Shown in pieces: positions 34,706 to 60,378 of a DNA stretch of 64,000 nt (within the stretch, counting starts at the first letter, position 1; every line of letters begins with the position of its first letter). The stretch comes from an uncultured delta proteobacterium (lineage in GTDB: Bacteria > Myxococcota_A > Polyangia > Fen-1088): the NCBI GenBank assembly GCA_963796685.1, contig CAWCMR010000025.1, positions 352,001 through 416,000 on the forward strand. The letters run 5' to 3'. The notes under the pieces are model-generated. The model was given only the letters and a program-made list of their open reading frames with translations. It was not told where the DNA came from and made no database searches. A program made the translations under genes and the position numbers.

Positions 34706-34777
34706 TTGGTCGGTCCTCGCAGACCATACCACCGTAAGGCCTGAAAAGGGCGTAAACCGGTCCTGCAGGCCTGCTGG

Positions 34778-36891: not shown

Positions 36892-36930
36892 CGCGCAATG
36901 CAATGTCGACGACGTCTTCAAGCGTGTCGC

Positions 36931-38663: not shown

Positions 38664-38786
38664 GCCATGTCCTCCACTGAGCCTTCACCACAGTCATCAA
38701 ATAGCTGAACGCTAGCGGAACAGAGCGGACAATGTTGTCGCGGGTTCGTTGGAACCACAGCTGTACGACAACGACCTACCTGGCCT

Positions 38787-41434: not shown

Positions 41435-41475
41435 CACGACGCTCGACGAATACGTTCGGCAGCACATCGACGCCT

Positions 41476-41700: not shown

Positions 41701-42039
41701 GTGCTCCCCTTGTCTGCCCCGCATTCTACGCCGAAAGCTCCAGGTTTTATTCGGCTGTCAGGGCATGATGCCGCCGGTGTGCATTCCCTAGTCGCCGACG
41801 AGGCTGCCCTAACGCGGCGCTAGGCCGCAAAATTCTCAAGAAATGCGAAGTCCCTCCGTGCGCTGACGCATCCATCGCCCGCGCCGCAACTGGGGCTTTG
41901 GAACCCGCGTCTTTGGCGGCGTCGCTGAAACGGAACTCCCAGGCTTCTGCCACTGCAGATGACGATGGGATCGCTAGAAACGAATTCGTGCGCGGCTTCG
42001 GTCGCGCCGGTCAATGGAACCAGTCATGAAAAGGCAAAG

Positions 42040-43708
42040 ATGCACAAATTGGGAGGGATTTCCCGCGCCATTCTTCTCTCGGTGCTGTGTGTAGCCGCCT
42101 CTGCCCTCTTTGCTCCGAGCACGTCGGCAAGCACCAATCAGTTCAAAGGTGTCAACTGGGCCGATTCGCGGGACAACTTCCAGGCTGGTGTCCTATACGT
42201 TTCTGGCCTCTCCTCGTCCGACACCTACGCGTCGGCGTTGGCCACGGGAAACAGCGTCATGGACCAGTTCGTGTCGAAGCTTGGCGCGAACGCCGTCCGA
42301 ATGCCCATCAACGAGGCGACCGTTTCGACCTTCTGGAGCACGTACACGGGCGCGATTGACGCGGTCCTTGCCAAGGGCGCGGTCGTGCTCTGCTACTGGG
42401 ACAGCGCCAAGAGCAACAAGCCCCCGGACATGAACGCATTCTGGAGCATGTGGAAGACCGTGGTCGACAAGTACGGCAGCAACGACAATGCCTACTTCGA
42501 AATCTTCAACGAGCCGAACATGTACAGCAAGACCGATTCTGGCTGCGCTCTACACGAGCTGGTTGACCCAATTCTCGACCGTGCCCAAGGCCAGGGTCAT
42601 TCTCGACGGAACCGGCAACGCGCAGAACGTTCCCGATATCGGCTCGGTCGCTTCGCTGGACGGCTGCCTGCTGGCCGTGCACGACTACAGCTTCTTTGGT
42701 TCGGATACTTGGACCACCGAATCGCAATGGGTCAGTCAATTCAAGGGCGAAGTCGGCACCTATTCCGACCGGACCGTGTGCACGGAATGGGGCGGCCCCA
42801 TGAGCCCGGGCAGCAAGAACGGGATCAGCTACGGATCTTTGGACTATAGCCAGTCTCCCACGAACTACTTCGAGGCCTACCTCCGCGGCATGAGCAGCCA
42901 GCTGCGCGCATGGGACATGGGAAGCTTCTACTGGCCCGGCCTCCGCGACGGCGACTGGTACAGCATGACGACCCGGAGCGGAACCGGCGCCAACCTGCAA
43001 CTTACGGTTTCGAATCAGTCCGGGTTGGCGCAGCTACAGAATGCGTGGACGGGCCCACCGCCAGGGACTGGCGGCACTTCCGGCAGCGGCGGCCGTGGCG
43101 GATCCGACGCAGGCTCCGGCGGAACCACCACAGTCGGCTCCGGCGGGACAACGACTACCGCCGCAGGAGGGAGCTCGGGCGCGGGCGGTACGTCGTCGGG
43201 AGGCACAGGCGGCGCCGCGGGGGCATCCGCCAGCTCCGGAGGAGCCGGCGGCGCCAGCGCTCGAGGCGGTGCAGATGCGGGCAGCGGCGGAGCGGCGGGC
43301 ACGACGGCCGGCGGAACCGGGGGTGTGCTTGGCACGGGTGGGACGACCGCGACGGGCGGCGTGACGACCGGCTCCGGCGGCACGATTGCCGCTACCGGTG
43401 GCAGCTTCGGGAGTGGAAGCTCCGGCAGAAGCGGCAGCGGCGGCGCCGGACAGGGTGGACTCAGCTCTGCCGGAACCTCGCCGGCAGCGGGGGGGAGCGG
43501 CTCGGGGTGCACGTGCAACATCGGGCTCGCGTCGCCTGTGAGCCTCGGCCGCCTGCCCTTGATGCTTGGCTTGCTCGGCCTGGTAACCTTACGACGTTTG
43601 CGGCGGCGCGGCCGCGCCTTACCGCGCGGCTGGCGGCGTTGGGGCTTGGCTCGCGGTTCTTCGCCCGCTGGTTTCTCACCTGGGCAGGGTAGTCGGTTGG
43701 TACCATAA
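42040..43708 (+). CDS. Secreted GH5 glycoside hydrolase with Gly/Ser/Thr linker and MYXO-CTERM-like tail; frameshift near 42535
   Basis: Signal peptide, VRMPIN, FEIFNEP (acid/base), AVHDY and CTEWG (nucleophile). Tail is GCTC + hydrophobic + RRLRRR. Confidence 0.82.
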
Positions 43709-43720
43709 GGAAGCACCACC

Positions 43721-45265
43721 ATGAAAAAGCTACTCGCCGTCCTCTCTCTCGCCCTGTTCGCCATTGTGACCGTGGGTTGCGCCGGCAGTACGTCGGCCCC
43801 CGAGCCACGACAGAGCGGCGGTGCCACGGGCAGCGGCGGGTCCAGCCAAAGCGCGGGCGGAAGCCAAGGCAAGGGGGGCGGCTCCGGCTCGGGTGGCTCG
43901 GCCACGGGCGGCGTCACGGCGACCGGTGGCGGCGCCGGCAACGGCGGGGGCGTCGGCTCGGGCGGCACCAGCGCCGCGGGCGGAACGGCCGGCAGCGGTG
44001 GCAGCGCGGGCTCCGGGGGCACCAGCGCCTCCGGTGGACAGACCTCGGGAGGTGCCGGTGGCGGCGGTAGCAGCACGACCGGCGGTTCCGATGCCGGCAC
44101 CGGCCGCGATGGCTCGACCGCGTCGGGCGGGCGAGCCACGGGGGGCACGACGGGCGCCGGCGGCACGACGGGCACCGGCGGCACGACGAGCACCGGCGGC
44201 GCGACGAGCACCGGCGGCACGACCGGCCAGCTCACGCCCCAGGACGCGGTTAAGCTCATGTCGCCCGGCTGGAACCTCGGCAACTCGTTCGACGCGACCC
44301 CCAACGAGACGAGCTGGGGCAACCCCACGCCCAGTCAGACGCTGATCAAGGCGGTGCACGCGGCGGGGTTCAAGCTGCTGCGACTGCCTGTGGGCTGGAC
44401 CGACCACATCGGCGCCGGGCCCTCCTACACCATCGACTCGGCGTGGATGAACAAGGTCAAGCAGACCGCACAGTGGGCGGTCGACGACGGGATGTACGTC
44501 TTCCTCAACACGCACCACGATTCGGACGGCGGCAACGGCGGCTGGGTTTCGTTCCCCTCGACGACCTCGGCCGCACAGACGGTGGCGACCGAGGTCACGG
44601 CGGTGTGGACCCAGATCGCCAACGCCTTCAAACCCTTCGATGGCAAGCTGATGTTCGAGTGCTTCAACGAGCCCAACTACACGGCCGGCCGGAGCACCCA
44701 GGCGGAGATCGACCTCAACCTGTACCTCGAGGCGTGCTTCAAGGCGATCCGCGACACCGGCGGCGCCAACAGTACCCGCATCGTCATGATCCAGCCCATC
44801 GGCGCCAGCCCCATCCAGGCCGGGATCCAGAACATTCAAAAGGTCAGCTTCATCAATGACCCGAACCTGGTCATCTCGCTGCACACCTACTACCCGACCA
44901 ATTTCGGATTGAGCACGACGCCCTACGCGTGGGGTAGCGCGGCCGACTACACCGACATGAAGAATTCGCTCGCCCAGCAGATCCGCGTTTGGCTGCCCAC
45001 GCAGGTGATCTTCATCGGCGAATGGGGCTCGATGAACGCGCAGGCGGCCGCCACCCGGGCCGCACACGCCCAGGCCTATGGGCAGGACACGACGACCGCC
45101 AACGTCGTTCCCATCTGGTGGGACAACGGCGGCTCGGGCAGCGAATCCTTCGCGCTCTTCGATCGCAACAGCGCTGCCGTGACCCAGTCGGCGATCGTCG
45201 ATGGCCTGATGACGGGCGTAAAGAACGGCCTGGCGTCGCCCAACAACTGGGCGACCGGCCCGTAA
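43721..45265 (+). CDS. GH5 endoglucanase-like lipoprotein (GH5_4-like)
   Basis: Lipobox TVGC, Gly-rich linker, GWNLGNSFDA, LRLPVGW, NTHHD, FNEP, IGEWG and WWDNG. Confidence 0.92.
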   Translation: MKKLLAVLSLALFAIVTVGCAGSTSAPEPRQSGGATGSGGSSQSAGGSQGKGGGSGSGGSATGGVTATGGGAGNGGGVGSGGTSAAGGTAGSGGSAGSGGTSASGGQTSGGAGGGGSSTTGGSDAGTGRDGSTASGGRATGGTTGAGGTTGTGGTTSTGGATSTGGTTGQLTPQDAVKLMSPGWNLGNSFDATPNETSWGNPTPSQTLIKAVHAAGFKLLRLPVGWTDHIGAGPSYTIDSAWMNKVKQTAQWAVDDGMYVFLNTHHDSDGGNGGWVSFPSTTSAAQTVATEVTAVWTQIANAFKPFDGKLMFECFNEPNYTAGRSTQAEIDLNLYLEACFKAIRDTGGANSTRIVMIQPIGASPIQAGIQNIQKVSFINDPNLVISLHTYYPTNFGLSTTPYAWGSAADYTDMKNSLAQQIRVWLPTQVIFIGEWGSMNAQAAATRAAHAQAYGQDTTTANVVPIWWDNGGSGSESFALFDRNSAAVTQSAIVDGLMTGVKNGLASPNNWATGP

Positions 45266-45313
45266 CCGATGCGCATGGAAGCCAGTAATTTTCTCCGACG
45301 GAAGAGAGAGCCC

Positions 45314-46966
45314 ATGAATCCGTGGATGCTCACATCCATGCTGATGGCCGCGATGGCAATTGCGGGCGACGGTTGTTCTAGCAACTCGACACGTGCGAGC
45401 GGTGGATCCGGCGGTACGTCGAGCTCAGGTGGAATGAGCGACAGCGGTGGCTCGCCAGGCTCTGGAGGAAACACGAGCTCAGGGGGCCAACCACAAGCTG
45501 GCACGATGGGGCGAGGTGGGGCCGTGTCGGGAGGCCAGTCAGGAACGGCGGGAGCAAGCTCGACCGGGGGGCTGAGCTCCTCGGGGGGCCTCACCGGCTC
45601 GGGCGGAGCGAGCTCCGACGGCGGGAGTGGCGGCAAAGACGGCGGCAGCGGAAGCGGCGGGACCGACGCACGCAGCGGCACCGGCGGGTCAGCTATGGGC
45701 GGTGGAACGGGCACGGGTGGCGGTGCTAGAACTGGGACCGGCGCCGGGGGAAACATCGGCGGCACAACCGGCACGTCCCCCGCCAGCGGGGGCGTACCCG
45801 GCGCCGGCGGAACCGGTGCGGGTGGCACCACCGCCAGCTCTTCAGGGCCGCCCATGGGTTGGGCGTCGTGGAATAGCTTTGCCGCCACGATCACCTACAA
45901 CGTCATAAAGACGCAAGCGGACGCCATGGCATCAAGCGGGCTCGAGGCGGCCGGGTACCAATATGTCAACATCGACGAGGGTTGGTGGCAGGGCACGCGT
46001 GACAGCTCTGGCAAAATCACGGTCGACACGTCCGTTTGGCCGGGCGGGATGCAGGCCATCGCCGACTACATCCACGGGCTCGGACTCAAGGCGGGAATCT
46101 ATACCGACGCCGGGAAAGATGGCTGTGGCTACTACTACCCAACCGGGCGCCCAGCCGCGCCGGGATCCGGCAGCGAAGGTCACTACGACCAGGACTTTCT
46201 GCAGTTCTCGCAGTGGGGCTTCGACTTCGTCAAAGTGGACTGGTGCGGCGGTTCTTCGGAGGGCCTCGACCCGAAGACCGCGTACCAGGCGATCAGCAAC
46301 TCCATCGCCAAGGCTACCGCGCAGACGGGACGCCCCATGGTGCTCTCGGTCTGCGACTGGGGCAACGGGAGCCCCTGGAATTGGGCACCCAGCATGTCCA
46401 CGATGTGGCGCACGAGTCAGGACATCATCTACTACGGCAATGCGCCCGACATGGCCAAAGTCCTCTCCAACTTCGACTCTGCTCAACATCCGACCGCGCA
46501 AAGCCCGGGTCACTACAACGATCCGGACATGCTCATCGTCGGCATGTCGGGTTTCTCCCTGGCACAAAACCGAACCCACATGGCCTTGTGGGCAATCTCG
46601 GGCGCTCCCTTGTTGGCAGGCAACAAGCTGGACAGCATGAGCGCCGACACGAAGAGCGTCCTGACGAACGGCGATGTGATTGCGATCGACCAGGACCCAC
46701 TGGCCAAGCAGGGCTCCAAGGTCTCGGACAGCGGGGGACTACAGGTCTACAGCAAGCAGCTCTCGGGGACCGGACGTCGCGCCGTGCTTCTGCTCAACCG
46801 AACCACGTCGACAGCGACCATCACCGTGCACTTTTCCGATATCGGTCTAGGGGCGACCGCATCGGTGCGGGATGTCTGGGCGGGGACAGACTTGGGGAGC
46901 AAGACGACGAGCTATGCCGCCAGCGTTGCGTCCAACGACTCCGTGCTACTGATCCTATCGGAGTGA
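45314..46966 (+). CDS. GH27 alpha-galactosidase-like exported protein
   Basis: PPMGWASWN, VNIDEGW, GIYTDAG, FVKVDWC, MWRTSQD and YNDPDML. Confidence 0.93.
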   Translation: MNPWMLTSMLMAAMAIAGDGCSSNSTRASGGSGGTSSSGGMSDSGGSPGSGGNTSSGGQPQAGTMGRGGAVSGGQSGTAGASSTGGLSSSGGLTGSGGASSDGGSGGKDGGSGSGGTDARSGTGGSAMGGGTGTGGGARTGTGAGGNIGGTTGTSPASGGVPGAGGTGAGGTTASSSGPPMGWASWNSFAATITYNVIKTQADAMASSGLEAAGYQYVNIDEGWWQGTRDSSGKITVDTSVWPGGMQAIADYIHGLGLKAGIYTDAGKDGCGYYYPTGRPAAPGSGSEGHYDQDFLQFSQWGFDFVKVDWCGGSSEGLDPKTAYQAISNSIAKATAQTGRPMVLSVCDWGNGSPWNWAPSMSTMWRTSQDIIYYGNAPDMAKVLSNFDSAQHPTAQSPGHYNDPDMLIVGMSGFSLAQNRTHMALWAISGAPLLAGNKLDSMSADTKSVLTNGDVIAIDQDPLAKQGSKVSDSGGLQVYSKQLSGTGRRAVLLLNRTTSTATITVHFSDIGLGATASVRDVWAGTDLGSKTTSYAASVASNDSVLLILSE

Positions 46967-47091
46967 TTGGTGCTTCTGGGTTTCTGAACGCCATGCGGTG
47001 TCACGGTTTCTCCACGACCAGAGGGCGCTCGCCCCGATGCAAAAACGGCACCCATACGATTGCTTCGTGCGCGTGCTACTCTGCGCCGGTC

Positions 47092-48354
47092 GTGAACCCC
47101 ACGCTCGTGCCCTCTCGCCGTCTTCTTTCCACGCCTGTTGGCCTGGTAACGCTGGCCTTGCTCGCCTTCGCCTGCTCGACTGGTTCCGAGCCCGGGACGT
47201 CTCCACGTACGGGTGGCAGCGGTGGTACGGGTGGGAGCGCTGCCGGTGGTACGGGCGGCGCGCCGACTTCGTGCACGGGCTGCTTTTCAGGACCGCGGCT
47301 GACGGGGGTGAACTGGTTTGGGTTCGAGACCAGCAACTTCTCGCCCCACGGCTTGTGGGCACGCGACTACCGATCGATGTTGCGGCAGATCAAAGAGCTC
47401 GGCTTCAACAGCATCCGCCTGCCCTGGTGCAACGACATGCTGACCGCCAGCCCGAGCGGAATGCAGATCAATGCCTACGGCACCGACCCCTACACCGGGG
47501 AGCTGGGGCTCAACCTCGATCTCGATGGCCTGTCGTCCCTCGAGGTGATGGACAAGATCTTGGACGAGTGCAACCGCATCGGCTTGAAGGTCATCCTGGA
47601 CAATCACTCGCGCGCCCACGACGACTACATGAACGAGACGCTGTGGTACAAGGACGGCTACACCGAGGACGCCTGGATCGCGGACTGGGTCTCGCTGATC
47701 GACCGCTACAAGAACAATCCTGCGGTGGTGGCCGCGGATCTCAAGAACGAGCCCCACGGCAACACCACCACGGGCATGAAGCCGCCCGCCACCTGGGGCT
47801 ACGACGCGCAAGGCTACGGCAACACCGACTGGCGCAAGGCCGCCGCCAAGTGCGGGCAAGCCATCGTCGCGGCCAATCCGTCCATCACCGTCATCGTCGA
47901 GGGCGTCGAGAACTACCAAGGCGACAATTATTGGTGGGGCGGCAATCTGGAGGGCGTGGCCGACGCCCCCATCACCGAGATCCCGTCGGGCAACCTGTGG
48001 TACTCGGCGCACGAGTATGGCCCCGAGGTTTACAACCAGCCGTGGTTCCAGACGGCCGACTTTCCAAACAACCTGCAAGGCATTTGGGACAGCAAATTCT
48101 GGTTCGTGCAGAAGCAGAAGATCGCGCCGGTGTTCATCGGCGAATTCGGTATCAAGGAGGCCTCCGCCGCGGACCCCAGCTCGGTCCCGTACCAATGGCT
48201 GACCACCTTCATGCGAACAATCGGTGGCCAGGCCAGCTGGACCTTTTGGAGCATGAACCCGAACTCCGGCGACACCGAGGGCATTCTCAAGGACGATTGG
48301 GTATCGGTGAACGAGGCCAAGTACAACCTCATCAAGCCCTACCTGGCGCCGTAG
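47092..48354 (+). CDS. GH5 endoglucanase-like lipoprotein (GH5_1-like)
   Basis: Lipobox AFAC, GVNWFGFET, PHGLW.RDY, DLKNEPH, WWGGNL, YSAHEYG, IGEFG and NPNSGDT.G. Confidence 0.92.
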   Translation: MNPTLVPSRRLLSTPVGLVTLALLAFACSTGSEPGTSPRTGGSGGTGGSAAGGTGGAPTSCTGCFSGPRLTGVNWFGFETSNFSPHGLWARDYRSMLRQIKELGFNSIRLPWCNDMLTASPSGMQINAYGTDPYTGELGLNLDLDGLSSLEVMDKILDECNRIGLKVILDNHSRAHDDYMNETLWYKDGYTEDAWIADWVSLIDRYKNNPAVVAADLKNEPHGNTTTGMKPPATWGYDAQGYGNTDWRKAAAKCGQAIVAANPSITVIVEGVENYQGDNYWWGGNLEGVADAPITEIPSGNLWYSAHEYGPEVYNQPWFQTADFPNNLQGIWDSKFWFVQKQKIAPVFIGEFGIKEASAADPSSVPYQWLTTFMRTIGGQASWTFWSMNPNSGDTEGILKDDWVSVNEAKYNLIKPYLAP

Positions 48355-48408
48355 CTCGCGACCGACGCCAAGCCCGTGCGGCGGCATCGACCTCGAGTGG
48401 CGTCCCGC

Positions 48409-50283
<1,875 letters not shown>

Positions 50284-50341
50284 GCCCCTTCTATCGGCAC
50301 AACCTTTGCCGATCTGGAGGAGGCGAGCCGCCCGGCTCGCT

Positions 50342-52087
50342 CTACTGCGGATCGCGCGTTTGGAAGTGGGGCTCGTTGGCGAGATTCACGAACGCATCCA
50401 AAAGGCCGATTTTTCCCGATTGCAAGTCGGAAACCGAGCTCGCGCCCAGGCAGGATTGCGCCGTGCCGAAGGCGTAGGTGGCCAGGTAGTTGGCCACGCA
50501 TTGGTTGGCCTCCGGCACCTGGGCCAGATCCTTCGCCAAGTCTTCCTGTCCCGAAAAGGAGAAGGACTGAGCCCCCGCGATGGCCGGCGTGTACGTGCCC
50601 GAGGCGTCGATGGCAAGGCCACTCTCGGTTTCGCGGTATTGGCCGGCTTCGTTGAAATGCTCGAACCCGAAGCCCAGCGGGTCGAAGAGCTTGTGGCAGC
50701 TCTTGCAGGGCTCGACGCTTGCGTGACTGATTTCGTAGCGCTGGCGGGTCGTCTGCACGCCGGGCGCCGGCGGGGGAATGGGCGGAACGCCCGGGGGCGG
50801 GCTCGGCTTCGTCAGACAGAAGAGACGCGAGTAGGGAAACAACCCACGCTTGGTCGGCGACGACCCGTCCGACGCCGCGTGCACGGACAGGAAGGCCCCT
50901 TGCGCCAGAAGCCCGATTCCCCGCCCGGCCGGGCGGGTCACCGAATCGAAATCCGCCGTAGGCGTCGGAAAGCCGTAGAAGGTCGCCAGCGCCTTGGACG
51001 GGTTGGTGGTGGGCGCGGTCAGCAGGTCTTTGAGGCCGCCCTTGTTCTGGAAGACGACGTCGTCGATGAAGTGACGCGTTTCCTCGACCATGTCCGTGCT
51101 CAGCGCCGGGAAGTTCGACACATTGGTCTTCTGGATGGAGGTGACGTTGCTGTAATCGAAATAGGCGGCGAAGAACCGCTGAAGCGTCTCCTCGCCCGCG
51201 GAGGTCGCCATCATCGCCGCAGCCACCTTGGCCGGCGGATCCATCGACCCGCTCTCGGCCTTGGTCAGAAGATCGTCGGTTGGCGTGGTCCCCGTGTAGG
51301 TGTAGGCGAGCTCGGTCGCCACCTCGACCGGGGTGAGCTTGCGAACGTTTCCTTGGACCGCGCCAATCTCGCTGCGATAGATGGCGTTCGGGCTCTGGAT
51401 GAGCCCCACGGTCATCCATTTGAGGGCGGTCTTGAAGTCGGACTTCGCCAATGACTGGTCGAAGAACGCGAGGTAGCGATCGTGCTCGGATGACGTGAGC
51501 GTACGGCGGAACAAGCGGCGGCCGTACTTGTTCAGAAAGGACTCGGCGCAGGCGTGGTCGGCCGTGCTCGCCGAGCAGGGCAACAGTTGGGCCAGGGGTG
51601 TTCCGACCAGCGCCGTGGCCAACGATTGCGCGGTATCGAGAAGCCCGCTGACCAGTTGGGCGCCGACCGTCGCCTGCGCATCGTTGTCGAAACCGTAACT
51701 GGAGACACCGTTGGCCGGAAGCGACGCGGTCCACTGCCCCTTCACCTCGGGGAAGATGTCGTCGAGAGTATTCTGCAGCTCCCCGTTGGTGAGAAGGCGC
51801 AGCACAGGTGAGCCGTTCGCTGGCTGGGCACAACTTTGCGCATCTGACGACGACGTCGTACCGCCGCTGCCGAGGTCTCCCCCCGCACCCGACCCGACGG
51901 TGGATCCAGCGCTCCCACCTGCGCCCGACCCGACCAGGGATCCGCCGTTGCCGCCCGCGCCGCCCCCATGGACGCCTGCTCCACCGCTCCCGCCCGCTCC
52001 GCCGCTCCCGCCCGCGCGGATGACGGCGCTGGCCCGACACCCGACCAAGGCGCCCAGCAAGGCCAGTCCGAGCCCTATCCGCCTCAC
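50342..52087 (-). CDS. DUF1592/DUF1588/DUF1595-family lipoprotein with CxxCH motif
   Basis: Lipobox LVGC, LRLLTN.EL.NT, GRRLFRR.LT, LIQSP...YR.E, SSPTKRG and CKSCH..FDPLGFGFE.F. Confidence 0.85.
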   Translation of the reverse strand: MRRIGLGLALLGALVGCRASAVIRAGGSGGAGGSGGAGVHGGGAGGNGGSLVGSGAGGSAGSTVGSGAGGDLGSGGTTSSSDAQSCAQPANGSPVLRLLTNGELQNTLDDIFPEVKGQWTASLPANGVSSYGFDNDAQATVGAQLVSGLLDTAQSLATALVGTPLAQLLPCSASTADHACAESFLNKYGRRLFRRTLTSSEHDRYLAFFDQSLAKSDFKTALKWMTVGLIQSPNAIYRSEIGAVQGNVRKLTPVEVATELAYTYTGTTPTDDLLTKAESGSMDPPAKVAAAMMATSAGEETLQRFFAAYFDYSNVTSIQKTNVSNFPALSTDMVEETRHFIDDVVFQNKGGLKDLLTAPTTNPSKALATFYGFPTPTADFDSVTRPAGRGIGLLAQGAFLSVHAASDGSSPTKRGLFPYSRLFCLTKPSPPPGVPPIPPPAPGVQTTRQRYEISHASVEPCKSCHKLFDPLGFGFEHFNEAGQYRETESGLAIDASGTYTPAIAGAQSFSFSGQEDLAKDLAQVPEANQCVANYLATYAFGTAQSCLGASSVSDLQSGKIGLLDAFVNLANEPHFQTRDPQ

Positions 52088-53572
52088 GAAAGAGCCTCCG
52101 CGATCACTCCCGTGGTGTCGGGAAAGGAAACCGTTCCGGCCCCCATGGCCTTGGCCAGGGTCAGGTAAATGTCCGTGGCCGGACGGTTGTTGGTGGCCGC
52201 GGTATCGGGGCTCGTGGTCTGCGAGCGCACCACCTGCCCCGTCTTGAGCGCGCCCCCGCACTTGCCGATGGTCACCAGGGGAAGGTTGGTCGGCACCTGC
52301 GGGTATTCAATCTCGCTCAAGCGGGTGTGGTTTTGCCCGTCGCCGATCTCGCTCATCCAATAGATCACGGTGTTGTCGAGCACCTTGCTTCCCGGCGCGG
52401 TGGGATCGTCCGTGGTCGCCAGCACACTGACCACGTTGTCGACCAGTTGCTGCGCGAACCAGCGTTGCGCAGTGGCAAAGGCTTTGCGCGGGGCGGGATC
52501 GTAGTTGTCGATACTGACCGGCGAGTTGTACTGGGCGGTGGACACCGCTTGCGGCGAGGTGTGCGAAAGGCCGCTGTGGTGCGATCCCGGCGCGCCCGCG
52601 AAGCCGAAGTCGAAGTCGCACGTGGCGAACATGGGCATGAGCCCGATGATCTGGGCCGCGTTGCAGATGAGCGCCTGGGCCACCAGCTCCAGCTGGGCCT
52701 GCAAGATCGTCGGAAAATTCTTCTCTTGGTAGAAATAGTCGTTGCCGCCGCTCGGATCGACGACCAGACCCGCGCTGGCGGCCCGAACCTTCTCTACCGT
52801 GGGCAAGGTCGGGCGGGTGGTGCAGGTCGATTGGCCCGAGCCATTTCCGCTTCCCGAAAGCACGCCCTGGACGGCGTCGAGGTGCGCTTGCAGCTTCGTC
52901 TGTTCAGAGGTCAACCCCGCAAGGCTCGACTGCAAGGTTTGGATTTCCGAAGCCGTCAGCTTCAGGAGATCCTGCCTCAGCCTGCACATCGGCATTGACC
53001 ACCGAAGCTCCGCCAAAGAGCGTGTCCGCGACCTTCACCGGATTCTTCTGGGGATCGATATACGACCCGTTCCAAAACAGCTTGCCGTTGGTGTCGATGC
53101 CGTACGGCAAGTGTGAACAGGCGCCAAGGATCAAGGGATTGATCTTGAGCGCGCTCCCAATCACCTGCTCGAACGTCGTGCGCTGGGTGGTGTCGTCGAC
53201 GATCTGCAGGCCGGAGAGGCAGTTGACGATGCCTGAATGGCTTGCCGCCGCTCCCCGGTACTGAAAACCCTCGTAGACGTTGACATAGGATTTGTACTGC
53301 TGAAGCGGCCCCAGGATGCTGACGTTCGACTTGTCGAGATCGAAGCTCGTCAGGTCGGAGCCCGCGACTCTCGGGTTGTAGTGCTCGGGCGCAACGCCGT
53401 GGGGCATGAAAAACACGAAGAGACGCTTGGCGGGGGTCGTGGGCGCCGCCACCGCGACGCGCGCCAACCGGCCTGCTGCGGCGAGGGTGAGCCCCGCGCC
53501 CATCGCCTTCAAGAACATGCGACGTTCCACGCCACGGCTGGCGCGCAGCATTCTTGGGGATTCTTTGGGCAT
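52084..53572 (-). CDS. DUF1552 (HXXSHH-family) Tat-exported protein; frameshift near 52981
   Basis: Tat motif ERRMFLK, KRLFVFFMPHG, SHHSGLSH and VLDNTVIYWMSEIGDG..H. The two ORFs join by removing one G. Confidence 0.82.
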
Positions 53573-53818
53573 GGGATGGCTTTCTTCGACGGCCCACCCG
53601 AAGAAGCCAAGGCTCGCCCCGCGAGATCACGCGATCAGAGAACCCGGGGTAGAGATTCCAAAACGACTTCTCAGGACGCCGCCAACCGGGGACCAAGCGA
53701 GTACAAGGGAGACCTTGGGATGCACGAAGGCGGCTAAAGGTAACCGCAATTCGCGTGGCCCCATGGGCACCGGTCCAGTAGGTTCCACTCCCACCTGCCC
53801 CTGGCACCGCGATCGAAG

Positions 53819-54985
53819 CTAAGGCCCACAGCCAATGGGCGTGGTGGAGAGCGCCACATCGTCGATCCACAAATCGGTTTCCACGTTGCTGAAGCTCTGC
53901 CAGCCGAACACGGCTTGCACGAACTTGCCGCTGAGGAAGGTAGCCCCTGCGGCCTGGTGCTCCCATTGGTCCGGCGCGGTGACGGAGAAGACCAGGGTAC
54001 CGTTGGCATAGGCCAAAACCTGGTGCTGAGGCAGATCGCCGAGAAACGCGACCTCGACGCAAACCCAATCGTTGGCGGGGATGACCTGGCCCTTGCCCCA
54101 TTGGGTGTCCACGGGGGAAATGTCGTCGGTGGGGACTTCGTTGACCCCGAGGGTGCCCTTGATCTCCCCGAAGCGCACCTCGTTGTCCGCGCCGCTTGGA
54201 TTCTTGCGCAGCACGAACAGGCTTTCGTGGTTGGACGTGTTCGGGTCGTGCATGCCGAGCGGCCGGGTCATGTACACGAAGGCGCGCATGTAGAGGCGCG
54301 TAAGGCCCGTGGGCAAGGTCTTGCCGATCTGCGCGGGCGACGATCCGCCGTGCACGTGGACGGACTTCTTTCCGCTGTGTGCGCGGGTCTCGTCCACCAA
54401 CGCCAGGGTCGTACCGCTGGGGTTCTGTCCATTGAGGTTGTAGGCGATGAACGCGTCGAAACCACCGGGGACGCTGCCCGTGGTATCTGCTTCGAAATCA
54501 TCGCTGAAGAACGGGGTCGGGCTGGCGCCGCCCGAGCCGCCGGCGCTCGATGCACCGCCAACGCCCGCCGCACCGCCGCTGCCCGCCGCGCCACCGCTGC
54601 TCGGTGTTCCGCCAGTGTCCGTCGCGCCGGTGCTCGTGCCAGCCACACCTCCATCGCCCATTACACCGCCAGTGTCGGTCGTACCGCCAGCGCTCGTCGC
54701 GCCGCCAGTGCCAGTCACACGACCAGCGCTCGTCGCGCCGCCAGTGCCAGTCACGCCACCAGCGCTCGTCGCACCGCCGGTGCCGGCCACGCCGCCCGTG
54801 ACCATCGCGCCGCCGGTGCTCGTTGCCCCGCCGGCGCTCGTCGCGCCGCCAGCCACGATTTGGCCACCTGTCCCCGACAGGCCGGCATCGCGCTTGGAAG
54901 AGCTCGATTGGCAATCGGCTGCCAACGCCAAGCCGAGCAGCAACGAGGCTCCGCCGTAGAACCTTGCGCTTCGTGAGCTTGCCAT
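53819..54985 (-). CDS. Cip1-like (polysaccharide-lyase-like jelly-roll) lipoprotein
   Basis: Signal with Cys, a G/T/A linker, FFSDDFE, AHSGKKSVHV, LYMRAFVY, EVRFGEIKG, WVCVEV and LWIDDVALS..PIGC. Confidence 0.7.
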   Translation of the reverse strand: MASSRSARFYGGASLLLGLALAADCQSSSSKRDAGLSGTGGQIVAGGATSAGGATSTGGAMVTGGVAGTGGATSAGGVTGTGGATSAGRVTGTGGATSAGGTTDTGGVMGDGGVAGTSTGATDTGGTPSSGGAAGSGGAAGVGGASSAGGSGGASPTPFFSDDFEADTTGSVPGGFDAFIAYNLNGQNPSGTTLALVDETRAHSGKKSVHVHGGSSPAQIGKTLPTGLTRLYMRAFVYMTRPLGMHDPNTSNHESLFVLRKNPSGADNEVRFGEIKGTLGVNEVPTDDISPVDTQWGKGQVIPANDWVCVEVAFLGDLPQHQVLAYANGTLVFSVTAPDQWEHQAAGATFLSGKFVQAVFGWQSFSNVETDLWIDDVALSTTPIGCGP

Positions 54986-55102
54986 CGCGAAAGCATAAGC
55001 GGCGCCGACGAGGTGCCAAACGGAAAATCGGACCTTGTCGGGTCGATTTAACGCCGCACGACTGCTAAACCAACCACTTCGGAGTGTCCTTGGGAGGATT
55101 CG

Positions 55103-56173
55103 ATGACATGCGCTTCCCTGCCTTCGCTTCCAAATGAGTCTCGGTGGAGGCCGCGCCTGGCGCGCTGCCTGGCAACAGCCGCGTTCGCCGCCTCGCTGGC
55201 AGCGTGCAGCAGCAGCCAACGTTCGGGAGGCACAGGCGGTGCAAACGAATCGGGCGGCGTGACCGGCACCGGCGGCTCGACGAGCAACGGCGGCACCTCG
55301 AGTACCGGAGCAAAAGACGGGATGGGCGGGATGACCAACACCGGAGGTTCGTCCAGCGCCGGCGGCTCGACCAATACCGGCGGCTCGACCGGCACCGGCG
55401 GCACGACCAGCACCGGCGGCACGACCGGCACCGGCGGCACGACCAGCACCGGCGGCACGACCAGCGCCGGCGGCACGACCAGCACCGGCGGCACCTCGGA
55501 CACCGGTGGAAACAGTGGATCCACCAGCAATGGCGCATGTCCCCCGGATGCCTTCTTCTGCTCTGGGTTCGAGGACGCGACCCTGCCCACGGCAGCCACC
55601 TATGTCTCCAATCTTTCGACCCCGGTCGAGGTCGTGATCGACTCGACCGTTCACAACACCGGAACCCAATCCGTGAAGGTCAACCCAGGCACGAGCTACG
55701 TGTACCGCATGCTGTCCGTTCCGGCCGCGAAGTCCTTCTGGTTCCGCGCGTACATGATGACCGACGTACCCATCGATCAGAAAGCGACGGTGCACGAGAG
55801 TTTCATGGGCGCCAACTGGGGCCAGGACAAGGGCGTCGACATCGTGCAGGAACAGTGCGAGGTGGCCGTCAACATCAACGACAATCCCGTGCTCGGATCC
55901 AACGGCCAGAACCCTCCCATCACCTGTCCCGCGGACGGCCAAAAGATCGCCGCCAACACCTGGTACTGCTTCGAAGGTTCTTTCGACGGCAGCACGGGCG
56001 ATTTGGAAATCTTCGTCGACGGCGCATCCATCATCAAGGCCAGCGCAGTTCCGCAAGCCAAGCAGTCGTTCACCAATTTCCGGTTCGGCTACGTGGAATA
56101 CAATGGGACGAACCGCACGGTGTGGTACGACGATGTAGCCACGGCGCCAACCCGCATCGGCTGCCTGAAGTAG
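55103..56173 (+). CDS. Second Cip1-like lipoprotein, divergently transcribed
   Basis: Lipobox LAAC, TGGTTS linker repeats, FFCSGFE, FWFRAY, WYCFE and VWYDDVA....RIGC. Confidence 0.65.
   Translation: MTCASLPSLPNESRWRPRLARCLATAAFAASLAACSSSQRSGGTGGANESGGVTGTGGSTSNGGTSSTGAKDGMGGMTNTGGSSSAGGSTNTGGSTGTGGTTSTGGTTGTGGTTSTGGTTSAGGTTSTGGTSDTGGNSGSTSNGACPPDAFFCSGFEDATLPTAATYVSNLSTPVEVVIDSTVHNTGTQSVKVNPGTSYVYRMLSVPAAKSFWFRAYMMTDVPIDQKATVHESFMGANWGQDKGVDIVQEQCEVAVNINDNPVLGSNGQNPPITCPADGQKIAANTWYCFEGSFDGSTGDLEIFVDGASIIKASAVPQAKQSFTNFRFGYVEYNGTNRTVWYDDVATAPTRIGCLK
55376..55495 (+). repeat. 18-bp coding tandem repeat (TGGTTS/G linker)
   Basis: ACCGGCGGCACGACC(A/G)GC repeated about 6 times. Confidence 0.75.
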
Positions 56174-56208
56174 CACGCGCCTTCACATCATCATGCAATA
56201 ATCGGTCT

Positions 56209-57327
56209 GTGCTCGCTTTGCTCGTCCTGCCGTGGCTGCTCGCCGTGAACACGGCGACGATGGAAAAGAGCGTGTGGCTCCTTCAAGGCACGGGTTGGGA
56301 ACGCGAAGAGACCGCCCTGCTCTATGCGCTGCGTATCTACACGCGCGATCTGAAGGTCCCCATCACCATCAGCGTGATTCCCTCGCAAGGCGAAACGCGC
56401 GACGACCAGCAGAAGGGCGCGAAGAGCCGCTGCGCCCTGGATGCATCCCTCGTGGCCTGGTTCACCAGCGACCAGGCCACCCCCCAGCTCTCGGTCCTGC
56501 GCTGCGCTTCGGGCGAAGAATACCGGCTGCCCCTGGTGCCCGCGCACGATCGCGAGCTTGCAGCCCAGACCCTGGCGCTCAAGATACGCGGCCTATTGAC
56601 GGAGGTCACAGCCAGCGAGACGGCCGAAGCTGAGCTGCCGCCGGGCTCCGGCCAGACTTCCCAGATGAAGCCCAGCCCCTGGAAGGATGACGCCGGGACG
56701 GGGCGCCTCGGCGACAATCCTGGCCGCCCGAGCCCCGCAAGGGCTCTTCCGTCGTCCGTGAGAATCGGTCGAAGCGAGGAAGAGGGACCGGCTGCCGGCG
56801 CGCGAACGCAACGGCCCCAGGCTTTGGAGGGCGGCCTCGACTGGCTCTACGGAGCGACCAATTCTTTCGCCAGGACTCGCCAGGGGCTGCTCTTGAGGCT
56901 GGCCATCGTATCGAAACGGCTGCCGCTGGCCGTAGAGCTGGACGGCGCGGTCGTCACGTCCGTCGCGAACGAGGTAGGCGGCTATCAGCTCACGGTCTCG
57001 GAGAGCCCCATCATCGGGGTCGCGCTGTCGGCGAGGTTGGCCGGCCCTTCGTGGACGCTCTCCATCGGGCCGCGAATCAGTCTGCATCGTATTTCGGCGG
57101 AAGGGCTCAGCCCCGACGGGCGCACAGGCTCGACCACGACCGCTGCCGTCGGGTTCGGGGCCCTCGAGCGTATCCTTTTCAAGGCTTCCGATAGCATGAG
57201 CCTCGGGCTCTCGCTCAGCAACGAAGCGCTCGTGCCACGTCAGCGATTCACCCTGGACGGGCGAACCCGATTCGACGTGGGACGCTTCCAGTGGGCCTTG
57301 TCGGCCGGCGTCGTCGTGCACCCATGA
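56209..57327 (+). CDS. Exported protein with probable C-terminal outer-membrane beta-barrel
   Basis: Hydrophobic N-terminus, Pro-rich linker and alternating beta strands ending WALSAGVVVHP. First gene of an overlapping 4-gene unit. Confidence 0.55.
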   Translation: MLALLVLPWLLAVNTATMEKSVWLLQGTGWEREETALLYALRIYTRDLKVPITISVIPSQGETRDDQQKGAKSRCALDASLVAWFTSDQATPQLSVLRCASGEEYRLPLVPAHDRELAAQTLALKIRGLLTEVTASETAEAELPPGSGQTSQMKPSPWKDDAGTGRLGDNPGRPSPARALPSSVRIGRSEEEGPAAGARTQRPQALEGGLDWLYGATNSFARTRQGLLLRLAIVSKRLPLAVELDGAVVTSVANEVGGYQLTVSESPIIGVALSARLAGPSWTLSIGPRISLHRISAEGLSPDGRTGSTTTAAVGFGALERILFKASDSMSLGLSLSNEALVPRQRFTLDGRTRFDVGRFQWALSAGVVVHP

Positions 57328-58025
57328 ATAGGCTGAACAGCAACCCATTCAACGTTTTGCCACCTGGTGGTACTAATAAGAATGTGAGGGCCGAGAGAGA
57401 TCCCCATGCGTGGACGGCCTCAGGTACGGGCGAAAGGCCGTCCTGGGTCGCGGGCTGCTGCGCGCACGAGCCGGCGGCGATCGCGGCGATGTTCAGGGAG
57501 CACTGCGACACGGTCGAGCGGATGATCCTGAGGCTCGTCGGACCCACACCGGATCTCGAAGATTTGGTCCAGACGACCTTCGTCGAGGTGATACGAACGA
57601 TCAACCGCTACCGGGGAGAGGCCAGCTTCAAGACCTGGATCACCAGCGTTGCGGTGCACGTCGCCCAGCACCACCTGCGTGCAGGACGCTTGCGACGTCA
57701 CGCGCCTTTGGAGATGGTCCCGGAGGAGCGCTTTGCGTCGCCCGCACCCGATATCGAGGCGCAACTCGACGAGCGGCGGCTGTCTGAACGGCTCTACTCC
57801 CTGCTCGACAGGATACCGTCGCGCCAACGGGTCGCCCTCGTGCTCTTCACCATCGATGGGCGGCCCGTGGAAGAGGTCGCGGCCCTGACCGGAGCGAGTC
57901 AGGTGACCACGCGGTCGCGCGTCTTCCTCGGGCGCAGGGCCCTGCGCGCCCTCATCGACGCCGATCCGGATCTGTCCCAGATGGCCGAATCCATGCTGGG
58001 CGGCGGACGGGAGAAGCGGGCATGA
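57324..58025 (+). CDS. ECF RNA polymerase sigma factor
   Basis: DLEDLVQTTF, YRGEASFKTWI and VEEVAALTG...T.RSRV. Alternative start GTG 57384. Confidence 0.9.
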   Translation: MNRLNSNPFNVLPPGGTNKNVRAERDPHAWTASGTGERPSWVAGCCAHEPAAIAAMFREHCDTVERMILRLVGPTPDLEDLVQTTFVEVIRTINRYRGEASFKTWITSVAVHVAQHHLRAGRLRRHAPLEMVPEERFASPAPDIEAQLDERRLSERLYSLLDRIPSRQRVALVLFTIDGRPVEEVAALTGASQVTTRSRVFLGRRALRALIDADPDLSQMAESMLGGGREKRA

Positions 58026-59431
58026 CCTCCTGTCGCCGAATGCGGGCCGCCATCATCGCTGTGGTGCGACGGCAAGCCAGCGAGGCGGAGCGGCTTTGCC
58101 TCGAGAAGCACCTGACGACGTGCCGGTCCTGTCGAGCGGAGAAGGCCCGTTGGCTCCTCATGGAGAGACTCGAGCAGCCGGACCCACCCAGGCTCTCGCA
58201 GGATGCCAGGGCGCGAATCCTGTGCCACGTGACCGACCTGCCCGAGCCCGAGGTCGTGGAGGAGCGAAAAGCCCGGCGCCTCATGCCGGCGCTGGCAGGT
58301 GGCACGCTGGCGGTCGCGCTCGCGGTCGCATTGCTGGTGGTGCTGCCCGGCGGCCGTCGCTCTGCCGCCAGGCTGGCTGGCCACGGCGGCAACGACCGTG
58401 CCCAGCCAGCGTCTCCCGCCATGGAGCGGACGATCGCCATTCGAGCGAAGACAGCCGGCACCCTCGATGCGGGCCGAGCGCATATCCTCTATGAAGCCGG
58501 AGCCGATCTGTGCGTGCAGCCCGGTGGCCGCGAGGTCGAGCTCTTTGCCGGCGAGATCGATGTCGAGGTCGCGCCCGGCGGGCCACGATTCCGCGTTCTT
58601 ACCCCGCGCTTCACCGTCGAGGTCCTCGGCACACGTTTCATCGTCAGGCTCGATCGCGTCCAGACCATCCACGGGGTGGTGCGCGTGGCCGAGCCGGACG
58701 CGGCCGGTGCACGGCAGCTCGCCCTGGTGCGAGCCGGCCAAGTCTGGATCTGTCCGGATGCGTTGCCGGGCGCCGAGCTCGCTTCGCCGACCGCGCTCGA
58801 CCCCAGCCGCGGGGGGGCGCCTGCGCCCCGGCCGAACACCGATTTCCAGGCTTCCACCGCGATCCGCGATCAGGGCCGAGGCCAAGACCTGCCCGCAGGG
58901 GTCTTGCTGGCCAGCGAAGCCTCGCCTGCCACGGAGTCGATGCGGGCAGTACATGCGCCACCCTCCGAATCGGGTGTAGCGGCCGAGGGTGCGCACCCAT
59001 CCGAAAAGGCGATGCTCGCCAGGCGAGAGATCTCGGCAGGCCCGCGCGCCCGTTCCGTCGACGAGCTTCTGTCGGACGCGCGCGCAGCCCTTGCCGCCGG
59101 GAACATCGGTCACGCGCGCGAGTGCGTCGCTTCTGCCCTGCGGGCAAGACCCAGGCCTCGGCAGCGGGCCATGGCCGAGTTGCTATCGGCCGACACCATG
59201 CTGGTCGAAAGCCGATACGACGACGCCTTGACTGCCTACCGCAGCATGATGGACCGGTTCGCCAGCTACCCCGAAGGTGAAACAGCGGCGTTCGCGCTCG
59301 CCCAGCTTCTGTCCGAACGGGGTCCGCAAGATCGGGCGCAACAGGCCCTGGAACGCTATCTGGAGCGCTACCCTGCGGGGCGTTTTGCCGCAGAGGTCGA
59401 AAAGAAGCTGGCCAATACGACTCCCCAATGA
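58022..59431 (+). CDS. Anti-sigma factor: zinc finger (HxxxCxxC) + TM + FecR-like + TPR
   Basis: HLTTCRSC, a TM helix, VEVLGTRFIV and YLERYPAGRF. Confidence 0.85.
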   Translation: MTSCRRMRAAIIAVVRRQASEAERLCLEKHLTTCRSCRAEKARWLLMERLEQPDPPRLSQDARARILCHVTDLPEPEVVEERKARRLMPALAGGTLAVALAVALLVVLPGGRRSAARLAGHGGNDRAQPASPAMERTIAIRAKTAGTLDAGRAHILYEAGADLCVQPGGREVELFAGEIDVEVAPGGPRFRVLTPRFTVEVLGTRFIVRLDRVQTIHGVVRVAEPDAAGARQLALVRAGQVWICPDALPGAELASPTALDPSRGGAPAPRPNTDFQASTAIRDQGRGQDLPAGVLLASEASPATESMRAVHAPPSESGVAAEGAHPSEKAMLARREISAGPRARSVDELLSDARAALAAGNIGHARECVASALRARPRPRQRAMAELLSADTMLVESRYDDALTAYRSMMDRFASYPEGETAAFALAQLLSERGPQDRAQQALERYLERYPAGRFAAEVEKKLANTTPQ

Positions 59432-60378
59432 CCCGCACGCTGCTGGTCCTGTGTTTGCTGGTGGGCTGCACGGAATCGACGGAGCTGTTCCAACAACACA
59501 AAGACGCGTCCTCGGCTGACGGTGCCGCAAGGCCGGAGCACGACTTCTGTCCCACCCGAATCGACGTGTACGGGGGGATCAACATGCAGCTGGCAGGTTG
59601 TGGCGGTGCCGCGCCGACGGACGCGACCCGCGAGAAGGGTTACTTCTCCCCCGGAGCACCCGACTATGACAGCACGGTGGCCGGCCGCTTGCTCGCGCGC
59701 CTGACCGATGACCCGGATCTGGTACCGATCTTCGGCTCGACCTGGAGCGTCCGCTCGTGCGCCGGCCCAGGCCAGACGCTGTCGCAACTGACCCCGCCTC
59801 TTTCCGAAGACGATTGCGCGGTCGATGGGGGCACCGAGGGAGGCACCTGGCAGACGAGCTGTGTCGGCGATCCCGCGCCCGTGTTGTTGTTCTCGGCCGG
59901 GATGCTCGACGATCTTTGTCACGGTGGCGGACCGGATTCGAGCGCCAAGGACGATCCGGCAACCTACGTTCGCCATTACGCGCAGCGAATGGCGTCCTTT
60001 CTGGCCAGCCGCAAGCCGGGGTTGGCCATGGTGGGTCCCCTCACGGAATGGACCGAAGCGCCCCCCTACACCGACAGCACGCCGGCGACATGCGACTGGC
60101 CGCGACCGCAGTGGGACGAGCAAGGCCTGCAGGCCTGGGTCGAATCCGCATCCGGCGCGCAGGGTGTCGCCGTCGATGTAGAGATCGTCCCTGACCTTCA
60201 CGCCGAGTTTCGCGACCACGGCAAGTGCTGCCAGATCCTCGACGGTTCCTGCTCCACCAACTGGTTCAGCCACGATAGCCAAGAGGTCGCGAGCTGCGAC
60301 GGCGCCCAGGCCATCGTGGATTTCTGGTACGCCCGACTCAAGGCCGCGCTGCTGGCACGGGACTTCGTTTGTCCATGA
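59428..60378 (+). CDS. Cys-rich lipoprotein, possible degenerate SGNH fold
   Basis: Lipobox LVGC and an ATGA overlap with the anti-sigma gene. LFSAGMLDD resembles SGNH block III. Confidence 0.6.
   Translation: MTRTLLVLCLLVGCTESTELFQQHKDASSADGAARPEHDFCPTRIDVYGGINMQLAGCGGAAPTDATREKGYFSPGAPDYDSTVAGRLLARLTDDPDLVPIFGSTWSVRSCAGPGQTLSQLTPPLSEDDCAVDGGTEGGTWQTSCVGDPAPVLLFSAGMLDDLCHGGGPDSSAKDDPATYVRHYAQRMASFLASRKPGLAMVGPLTEWTEAPPYTDSTPATCDWPRPQWDEQGLQAWVESASGAQGVAVDVEIVPDLHAEFRDHGKCCQILDGSCSTNWFSHDSQEVASCDGAQAIVDFWYARLKAALLARDFVCP

Follow-up and report, generated by a model that had tools for sequence, protein, structure and literature searches.

The locus described here raises the question of what a pair of coupled genes, one encoding a DUF1552 protein and the other a DUF1592-type lipoprotein, does beside a row of glycosidases. 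The genes lie in a 64,000-nucleotide stretch of DNA from an uncultured delta proteobacterium (assembly GCA_963796685.1, contig CAWCMR010000025.1), the whole of which is referred to below as the window. A first-pass annotation of the sequence had proposed a new type of polysaccharide-utilization locus (PUL), built around this pair in place of SusC/D. The reading favoured here, with confidence somewhat short of even, is that the pair belongs to an unfused accessory module resembling Cbp2D of Cellvibrio japonicus, probably redox in nature, which stands beside lipoprotein endoglucanases and is not an uptake device.

The relationship between the two genes was studied by scanning a set of genomes, one for each species, with a DUF1592-type alignment (A1); this gave 404 confirmed stretches, and 80 loci were kept. 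Six of these begin at a contig end and hold no upstream DNA, and in 73 of the 74 loci that do hold it a DUF1552 gene was found directly upstream on the same strand. The ATG or GTG start of the partner overlaps the DUF1552 stop by 4 nt in 34 of the 35 loci examined, and the same 4-nt overlap is seen in the window itself, where the DUF1592-type gene starts with GTG. Pairwise identities of DUF1552 and its partner were correlated (r = 0.92, reached by 0 of 2000 permutations), a pattern that demonstrates common descent as a unit and does not bear on binding. The pair is a self-contained, translationally coupled and very widespread module: the DUF1592-type family comprises 16,727 representative clusters at E ≤ 1e-3, and pairs are multi-copy in single assemblies (L012 and L032 share one contig, as do L036 and L063).

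Some unusual arrangements were observed among the 80 loci. One locus (L078:1-9076) has no DUF1552 gene upstream of its DUF1592-type gene, which there adjoins a CRISPR-Cas set consisting of Cas1, Cas2, a Cas3-like protein, GSU0053 and GSU0054. At L055:1674-5104, L059:2-2151 and L046:2-1162 the main pair has a second, more distant pair on its upstream side, a few kb away, and these second pairs have the opposite order, a DUF1592-type gene (with DUF1585) and then DUF1552.

The window DUF1552 protein carries the twin-arginine motif ERRMFLK and the histidine cluster SHHSGLSH, both of which the first-pass annotation had recognized, the former as a Tat signal. A RRx[FLVI][LIVM] motif was present in 41 of 41 DUF1552 open reading frames (ORFs) hand-picked from 72 loci for complete 5′ ends, and its position ahead of a hydrophobic stretch predicts export by the twin-arginine translocation (Tat) pathway. 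Conserved positions in the alignment include PHG..EH, HH..LSH and SE.GDG..H. A structural model was prepared for the intact orthologue at locus L008, using an alignment (A2) of 35 loci together with the two window halves, and displayed a pLDDT of 86 and a pTM of 0.81. Comparison of this model with the PDB using Foldseek gave 24 matches at E ≤ 1e-3, every one listed being a sulfatase (probability 1.00, E 4.8e-6 to 1e-3, TM-scores 0.33–0.39), and phosphonate monoester hydrolases and alkaline phosphatase came next. The formylglycine motif C/S-x-P-x-R was found at no conserved DUF1552 position, with three incidental matches in 37 rows. The model thus describes a soluble protein with a predicted sulfatase/alkaline-phosphatase fold, and DUF1552 is probably a metalloenzyme.

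The partner protein contains both the lipobox cysteine and the CKSCH motif ascribed to it in the first-pass annotation. Its four Pfam domains scored 34.1, 59.9, 78.3 and 87.2 bits, in order, all at or above the cut-offs, and the lipobox cysteine and a CxxCH motif were invariant in two sets of DUF1592-type sequences (20 of 20 and 35 of 35, with a single CxxCH in each of the 35). The structural model (pLDDT 78.8) was all-helical after a disordered linker of ~85 residues. The partner would be a membrane-tethered helical lipoprotein, and its CxxCH is probably a c-type haem site. Searches of PDB sequences with profiles of the DUF1552 and DUF1592-type families gave no match for either.

A third gene, on the strand of DUF1552 and 246 nt upstream of it, encodes a Cip1-like lipoprotein (Cip1a), which has a LAADC lipobox and a Gly/Ser/Thr linker. 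In the PDB, Cip1a matched 8q2a ("Putative lipoprotein"; 1.5e-67) and 8q28 ("Gluconolactonase domain protein"; 1.2e-58), which from their molecule names and lengths would be TtX122B and TtX122A, and Cip1 itself (3zyp) was matched at 3.4e-8. Long proteins with the X122 domain of Cip1a were found to carry, in two cases of two, cytochrome c and DUF1587/1595/1592/1588 domains as well. The window DUF1592-type protein aligns to the tail of one long protein (P0144) at 1e-33 with the CxxCH aligned. Among the longer relatives of the DUF1592-type protein, P0130 has three CBM2 domains, fn3, cytochrome c and the series DUF1587 to DUF1585; it covers 100% of the 496-residue DUF1592-type query region (33% identity, E 9.4e-59) and has its CxxCH in the same place. 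Cytochrome c domains are also present in three further long DUF1592-type relatives, together with CBM2 in two of these. When a custom profile was used, Cip1-like genes were detected in 4 of the 80 loci (L049, L054, L060 and L076), in each case downstream of the pair, on its strand and within ~4 kb, and nowhere else in 1.02 Mb of flanking DNA.

These architectures resemble proteins already described from cellulose degraders. Cbp2D of C. japonicus consists of CBM2, X158, FN3, a cytochrome X183, Pfam DUF1587 and a C-terminal X132 module with a CxxCH (PMC8981238), and TERTU_3803 and TERTU_2913 of Teredinibacter turnerae combine X122 (Cip1-like), X183 and X132 (PMC10916295). PMC12542752 reports Cbp2D and Cbp2E to be important for growth on insoluble cellulose, and a CBM2 protein annotated as DUF1592 is mentioned in a lignocellulose metaproteome (PMC6004670). 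By homology, the DUF1592-type protein would correspond to CAZy module X132. Over its whole conserved region it is homologous to the C-terminal module of CBM2-cytochrome proteins of the Cbp2D type (P0130), with the CxxCH in the same place, Cip1a is close to solved domains that are presumably X122, and all are predicted to be exported. In contrast to the fused proteins, the window modules are separate lipoprotein genes without a CBM or an X183-type cytochrome domain, and translation of the X132-like gene is coupled to that of a DUF1552 gene with a Tat signal.

The same Pfam families (PF07626/37/31/27 and PF07586) and the same two-gene association are seen in Planctomycetes and Verrucomicrobia, where a PSCyt3-PSD gene has a DUF1552 neighbour. 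The myxobacterial subfamily differs in being short (~550–600 aa) and a lipoprotein, in having no DUF1585 match at the thresholds used, and in its gene order of DUF1552 and then DUF1592, which is reversed in the second pairs at L055 and L059. He et al. (PMC5615132) note, in passages on these families, that PSCyt3 genes usually adjoin a family of unknown genes, and PSCyt-type proteins are there put forward for carbohydrate metabolism. A further system of the Planctomycetes-Verrucomicrobia-Chlamydiae group, DUF1501 with PSCyt1/PSCyt2/PSD1, is alike in combining a Tat-signal enzyme with a CxxCH protein, at times with carbohydrate-binding domains, and belongs to other Pfam families; a transfer of electrons to sugars or proteins has been suggested for it (Kamneva et al., PMC3542564). 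The idea of Cbp2D and PSCyt proteins as redox helpers is therefore already in print (passages of PMC8981238, PMC10916295, PMC5615132 and PMC3542564). A title and abstract search, together with the passages of papers that name these DUFs, gave no tie of DUF1552 to Cbp2D or X132. This connection may be the one new point, the family and the general idea being largely known.

The region is best described as two things side by side, a plus-strand glycosidase row and a minus-strand unit that includes the X122/Cip1-like lipoprotein, DUF1552, the DUF1592-type lipoprotein and perhaps a kinase. The four exported glycosidases would together cut plant polymers of the β-glucan or xyloglucan type on the outside of the cell, at its surface. 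The minus-strand unit would be the unfused counterpart of the Cbp2D/TERTU_2913-type proteins of cellulose-degrading gammaproteobacteria, in which X122, cytochrome c and X132 share one chain, and would serve outside the cytoplasm as an accessory, either transferring electrons or acting in some other way on glycans or glycan-active enzymes. A functional unit made up of the X122 gene, DUF1552 and the X132-like lipoprotein is plausible, and a redox role is plausible from the invariant CxxCH and by analogy with the fused proteins. Gene content, coupling, fold class, homology and fusions are direct results of the analysis; from these we infer haem binding, metal binding, contact between the two proteins, the redox role and the link to the neighbouring glycoside hydrolase (GH) genes. 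The weakest link is the last, that the neighbouring GH genes may make use of the unit.

The DUF1592/PSCyt3 family is very large and has no known function, and its fused forms, such as Cbp2D, matter for growth on cellulose, but no clear activity has come from the domains in isolation. Because the X132-like gene is coupled to that of a Tat-signal, sulfatase-fold protein, because X122 genes recur beside the pair and because X122 is fused to DUF1592-type modules, DUF1552 is a concrete candidate for the missing partner in the Cbp2D problem, and a working hypothesis is available for thousands of "DUF" pairs.

A number of observations weigh against the accessory reading. The plus-strand GH genes converge on the minus-strand unit, no lytic polysaccharide monooxygenase (LPMO) family was matched by Pfam among the scanned window ORFs, and the DUF1552 coding sequence in the window is not uninterrupted. 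When the DUF1592-type model was compared with PDB folds there was no match and no solved cytochrome (best E 0.48). According to PMC10916295, neither activity nor glycan binding was seen with X122 domains, and the TtX183 domains did not drive an LPMO. The densities of PSCyt and GH genes in Verrucomicrobia are inversely correlated (r = −0.62; He et al., PMC5615132).

The neighbourhood of the pair adds to these points. Genes were called within 6 kb on each side (546 genes, 721,097 bp, 80 loci) and scanned with Pfam using one representative per cluster. The flanks at 6–10 kb (236 genes, 300,243 bp) provided a far control, which is not independent of the pair and whose second batch had a scan threshold of E ≤ 1e-8 instead of 1e-6. 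A codon-usage caller replaced one based on third-position GC that missed linker-rich genes, and it still under-calls (782 genes in 1.02 Mb). Genes of carbohydrate-active enzyme (CAZyme) type were counted as GH, polysaccharide lyase (PL), one carbohydrate esterase, carbohydrate-binding module only and Cip1-like. Within 6 kb there were 24 such genes among the 546, spread over 22 of the 80 loci, and the custom profile adds one further Cip1-like gene, in L049, to this near-flank count; the remaining 58 loci had none. Extending the range to 10 kb gave a CAZyme-type gene in 27 loci and none in 53. The density at 0–6 kb (24/546, 4.4%) was no higher than at 6–10 kb (13/236, 5.5%; odds ratio 0.79, Fisher p 0.58), and homologues of the window's own GH5/GH27 genes were near the pair in 1 of the 80 loci. 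CAZyme density thus has no proximity gradient. In favour of the accessory reading, the 37 CAZyme-type genes in the 1.02 Mb of flanks would represent a rough ~2.5–3-fold enrichment over a background of ~11–13 GH plus PL genes per Mb; this background was derived from medians in PMC12093494 (GH 111 in Polyangiaceae, PL 14 over all myxobacteria) and an assumed genome size, comes from other genomes and another annotation method, and at ~30 per Mb the enrichment would no longer be significant (p 0.14). CAZyme islands like that of the window were found at L008, L028, L032, L042, L049 and L055, and most loci are not of this kind. The earlier suggestion of a haem or metal redox module working with CAZymes thus stands in outline, through the CBM2/cytochrome and X122 fusions and the Cip1-like genes in four loci; its tie to these particular glycosidases fares less well.

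A conserved set of sugar-handling genes downstream of the pair was observed in four to five loci (L046, L055, L059, L068). It comprises ThuA, Peripla_BP_4, aldose 1-epimerase, a GFO/IDH/MocA oxidoreductase and biotin carboxylase, and the far flank of L068 also holds parts of a sugar ATP-binding cassette (ABC) transporter.

How the pair could otherwise be explained was considered in the light of these data. The model in which the pair takes the place of SusC/D, capturing and importing glycans at the core of a new type of PUL, is very improbable, and is contradicted by the fold predictions, neither model having a β-barrel or transporter fold. As in the SusC/SusD loci of Bacteroidota, the pair is multi-copy and at times stands beside CAZymes and an extracytoplasmic function (ECF) sigma/anti-sigma unit, and the 27 loci with a CAZyme-type gene within 10 kb could be taken in its favour. 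Unlike those loci, it has neither a TonB-dependent barrel nor a SusD fold, CAZyme neighbours are lacking around most pairs, and its surroundings yielded neither a conserved regulator nor a conserved CAZyme partner; one TonB-dependent receptor was present in the near flanks and one in the far flanks of the 80 loci, and a full-length kinase-HDOD homologue was near the pair in 1 of the 80 (L013). The proposal of a PUL built around the pair is accordingly dropped, given the lack of a transporter or SusD fold, the heterogeneous neighbours and the absence of a proximity gradient, and a tempting but unsupported claim is removed. Chance proximity, in which a module with a general periplasmic task that has nothing to do with glycans happens to lie beside a CAZyme cluster in a CAZyme-rich genome, is a more serious contender, if still unlikely. 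The 546 near-flank genes fell into 367 clusters, 275 of them singletons; the largest was of Ser/Thr kinases (15 genes in 14 loci) and the rest ranged from housekeeping enzymes to regulators, with IMP dehydrogenase, GMP synthase, PEP carboxylase and tRNA synthetases among them. Chance would also account for the lack of a distance gradient and for GH genes that are convergent rather than co-oriented with the pair, and the very size of the DUF1592-type family suggests many roles. It does not readily account for the fusion of X122 to the DUF1592-type module in both long relatives, for the CBM2 fusions of that module, for X122 genes that follow the pair in four loci and only there, or for a window X122 gene that adjoins the pair and is co-oriented with it.

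A different chemistry was also weighed, in which DUF1552 belongs to the alkaline-phosphatase superfamily as a hydrolase of phospho-, sulfo- or phosphono-esters, and the partner is an anchor or specificity subunit whose CxxCH has a structural function or holds a metal. The fold matches to sulfatases and phosphonate monoester hydrolases agree with this, as do the conserved His, Asp and Glu positions of DUF1552 and the lack of a fold match between the partner and any cytochrome. The likeness to type I sulfatases and phosphonate monoester hydrolases is, however, one of predicted fold: DUF1552 lacks the formylglycine motif and has no PDB sequence match, the TM-scores are low, and the CxxCH stays invariant even among distant relatives with true cytochrome c domains in addition. 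Such a hydrolase is considered quite improbable, though hydrolysis by the sulfatase-fold protein is a rival to be taken seriously. The favoured accessory reading has in turn a more far-reaching form, which is put forward as a long shot. In this form DUF1552 would be a new Tat-exported metallo-oxidoreductase on a sulfatase fold, wired through the single haem of its X132-like lipoprotein partner and steered by the X122 subunit in a three-part, non-LPMO oxidative system for plant polysaccharides, and the fused Cbp2D and TERTU_2913 proteins would be single-chain relatives that also need a DUF1552 partner. If true, that need would explain the inactivity of isolated Cbp2D/TERTU_2913-type domains.

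The integrity of the locus bears on whether the module works in this organism. All genes listed in the first-pass annotation were present, with the reservation that DUF1552 and the first GH5 gene are each frameshifted. The DUF1552 Pfam profile is split over two frames, positions 1–150 lying in 52904–53572 and positions 162–289 in 52084–53016, with scores of 48.8 and 36.6 bits (cut-off 30). Comparison with intact orthologues, which read VDYDVQLRKDLL across the site, placed the break, one extra base (+1), near 52985. The N-terminal half runs from 53572 to the break, its frame staying open to 52904, and the C-terminal half, whose ORF opens at 53016, runs from the break to 52084 and is 72% identical to the intact L008 orthologue. 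The GH5 gene is broken near 42530–42545, so that its NEP and TEWGG motifs are read in different frames. As written, the frameshifted DUF1552 copy may mean that the module in this window is dead. That both breaks are real, and that both genes are pseudogenes in a decaying locus, is an appreciable but doubtful possibility. Real decay is plausible because neither break lies inside a long homopolymer, because long genes at 1–25 kb are intact, which disfavours a generally error-prone assembly, and because the window at 25–39 kb is packed with gene fragments. Assembly error in this GC-rich gene is also plausible, since a public protein from another assembly (P0129) shows the same type of out-of-frame read-through and 3 of 72 related loci have a split DUF1552, the other 69 being without an internal break (several ended by the contig end). 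The codon bias, which remains strong in both DUF1552 halves, likewise speaks against decay. P0129 (1063 aa) had been considered as a natural DUF1552-DUF1592 fusion and was rejected, its out-of-frame Arg-rich stretch marking a frameshifted gene call.

The features of the region are collected in Table 1. Window genes were fixed by third-position GC, the codon-usage caller and Pfam, the raw ORF lists being crowded with shadow frames.

Table 1. Genes of the glycosidase row, the DUF1552/DUF1592 unit and the adjoining sigma factor region (positions in the window).
Feature	Position	Strand	Evidence and remarks
GH5 number 1	41959..43708	+	Pfam Cellulase 6.7e-9, profile positions 22-136 only (41959-42849); rest in frame 42488-43708
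GH5 number 2	43721..45265	+	Pfam Cellulase 8.4e-48
GH27	45269..46966	+	Pfam Melibiase_2 1.6e-52 and Melibiase_C
GH5 number 3	about 47059..48354, start codon uncertain	+	Pfam Cellulase 2.1e-44
Ser/Thr kinase-HDOD/HD fusion	48409..50283	-	Pfam Pkinase 1.7e-46, HDOD 1.4e-44
DUF1592-type lipoprotein (PSD3-PSD5-PSD4-PSCyt3), 581 aa	50342..52087	-	Pfam DUF1587/1595/1592/1588
DUF1552 (HXXSHH, PF07586), frameshifted	52084..53572	-	Pfam 9.6e-13 and 5.1e-9 in two frames
Cip1-like (CAZy X122-type) lipoprotein, first (Cip1a)	53819..54985	-	PF21340 3.6e-12
Cip1-like lipoprotein, second, divergent (Cip1b)	55103..56173	+	PF21340 1.1e-7
Myxococcota-specific hypothetical protein	56260..57327	+	Atlas clusters of Myxococcota hypotheticals, 0.98
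ECF sigma factor	57291..58025, start may be 57384	+	Pfam Sigma70_r2, r4_2; NCBIfam TIGR02937
Anti-sigma factor: zf-HC2, membrane segment, FecR domain, TPR repeats	58022..59431	+	Pfam
Cys-rich lipoprotein	59428..60378	+	Start overlaps anti-sigma stop codon (ATGA)

Four exported glycosidases, three of GH5 and one of GH27, had been claimed, and all four were found, the broken GH5 number 1 in pieces only; membership was judged by a Pfam catalytic domain together with close solved relatives. GH5 number 1 is divergent, with weak PDB sequence matches (4m1r, 3e-4), and the start given for it earlier, 42040, is an internal Met ahead of the signal peptide. Its C terminus (43100–43708) consists of a long Gly/Ser/Thr linker, GCTCN, a hydrophobic stretch and RRLRRRGR. 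This tail resembles the MYXO-CTERM sorting signal, a likeness that was not confirmed, there being no NCBIfam match at E ≤ 1e-3. GH5 number 2 has a lipoprotein signal (TVGC) and a Gly/Ser/Thr-rich linker of ~150 aa; its PDB sequence relatives are 6pz7 (3e-64), 3ndy and 2jep (xyloglucanase), so that it appears akin to GH5_4-type endoglucanases and xyloglucanases. The GH27 enzyme is a lipoprotein with a long linker, and its best solved relative is 3a21 (E 4.1e-168), presumably a β-L-arabinopyranosidase and not an α-galactosidase. GH5 number 3 is likewise a lipoprotein (LAFAC) and matches 1ece, endocellulase E1, at 1.6e-91. Three of the four glycosidases thus combine Gly/Ser/Thr linkers of ~100–170 residues with lipoprotein-type signals. 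Because of these linkers and signals and of the GH5/GH27 relatives, the row would fit a surface-tethered attack on β-glucan or xyloglucan rather than mannan. Galactomannan or xyloglucan had been suggested as the target; xyloglucan or β-glucan suits the closest relatives, while mannan fits less.

The other parts of the first-pass inventory were largely confirmed. Both Cip1-like proteins have PF21340 matches and a lipobox cysteine; the second, Cip1b, is read away from Cip1a on the opposite strand, has a LAAC lipobox, scores 31.8 bits against PF21340 (cut-off 27) and has weak PDB matches. Pfam supported the ECF/FecR unit and the kinase-HDOD gene as described. The latter begins 58 nt downstream of the DUF1592-type gene, and inspection of its protein sequence revealed neither a signal peptide nor a membrane segment; the product is predicted to be cytoplasmic. 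The stated absence of a TonB-dependent or ABC transporter was upheld, with no Pfam match to TonB-dependent receptor (TonB_dep_Rec, Plug), SusD or ABC-transporter families among the scanned window ORFs. Lipoprotein-type Cys signals are found on the DUF1592-type protein, GH5 number 2, GH27, GH5 number 3 and both Cip1-like proteins. The GC content of the window is 0.59–0.70, that is, GC-rich, and relatives of the window proteins come from Myxococcota/Polyangia genomes and from metagenomes, the closest being 87–93% identical. Promoter and terminator scans of the window gave signals not above shuffled controls.

NCBIfam gave no family name for any of the window's proteins of unknown identity. The hypothetical protein upstream of the sigma factor gene had no Pfam or NCBIfam match, and an atlas score of 0.89 offers a weak outer-membrane β-barrel lead. 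The Cys-rich lipoprotein, which had no Pfam match, has SGNH/GDSL hydrolases as its language-model look-alikes (score 0.92), and a family set bearing Lipase_GDSL was common to 23 of the 30 atlas matches listed. As a lead, it may be SGNH/GDSL-hydrolase-like and perhaps a carbohydrate esterase.

Elsewhere in the window, the stretch at 25000–39700, of lower GC (0.59–0.63), contains gene fragments throughout and looks like a decayed island. The fragments include AAA_21 (profile positions 258–304), DUF2169 (214–294), DUF4143 (84–160), an FG-GAP piece, a partial Pyr_redox_2, a partial aldo-keto reductase and DUF3160 (158–351 of 632); one ORF6N gene and one HTH/MqsA-like gene lie among them. FG-GAP repeat proteins at 35077–36891 (+) and 39818–41467 (−) flank the fragment-rich stretch, the second lying immediately ahead of the GH cluster. 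A VgrG-like spike gene at 10563–13340 (−), with Phage_GPD, Gp5_trimer_C and Phage_base_V domains, and the DUF2169 fragment at 26614–26970 (+), 13 kb away, are components of type VI secretion. Finally, two adjoining penicillin-binding/transglycosylase genes lie at 20510–25131 (+) downstream of an ECF sigma gene, and the product of one (744 aa) has a Transgly domain at its C-terminal end only.

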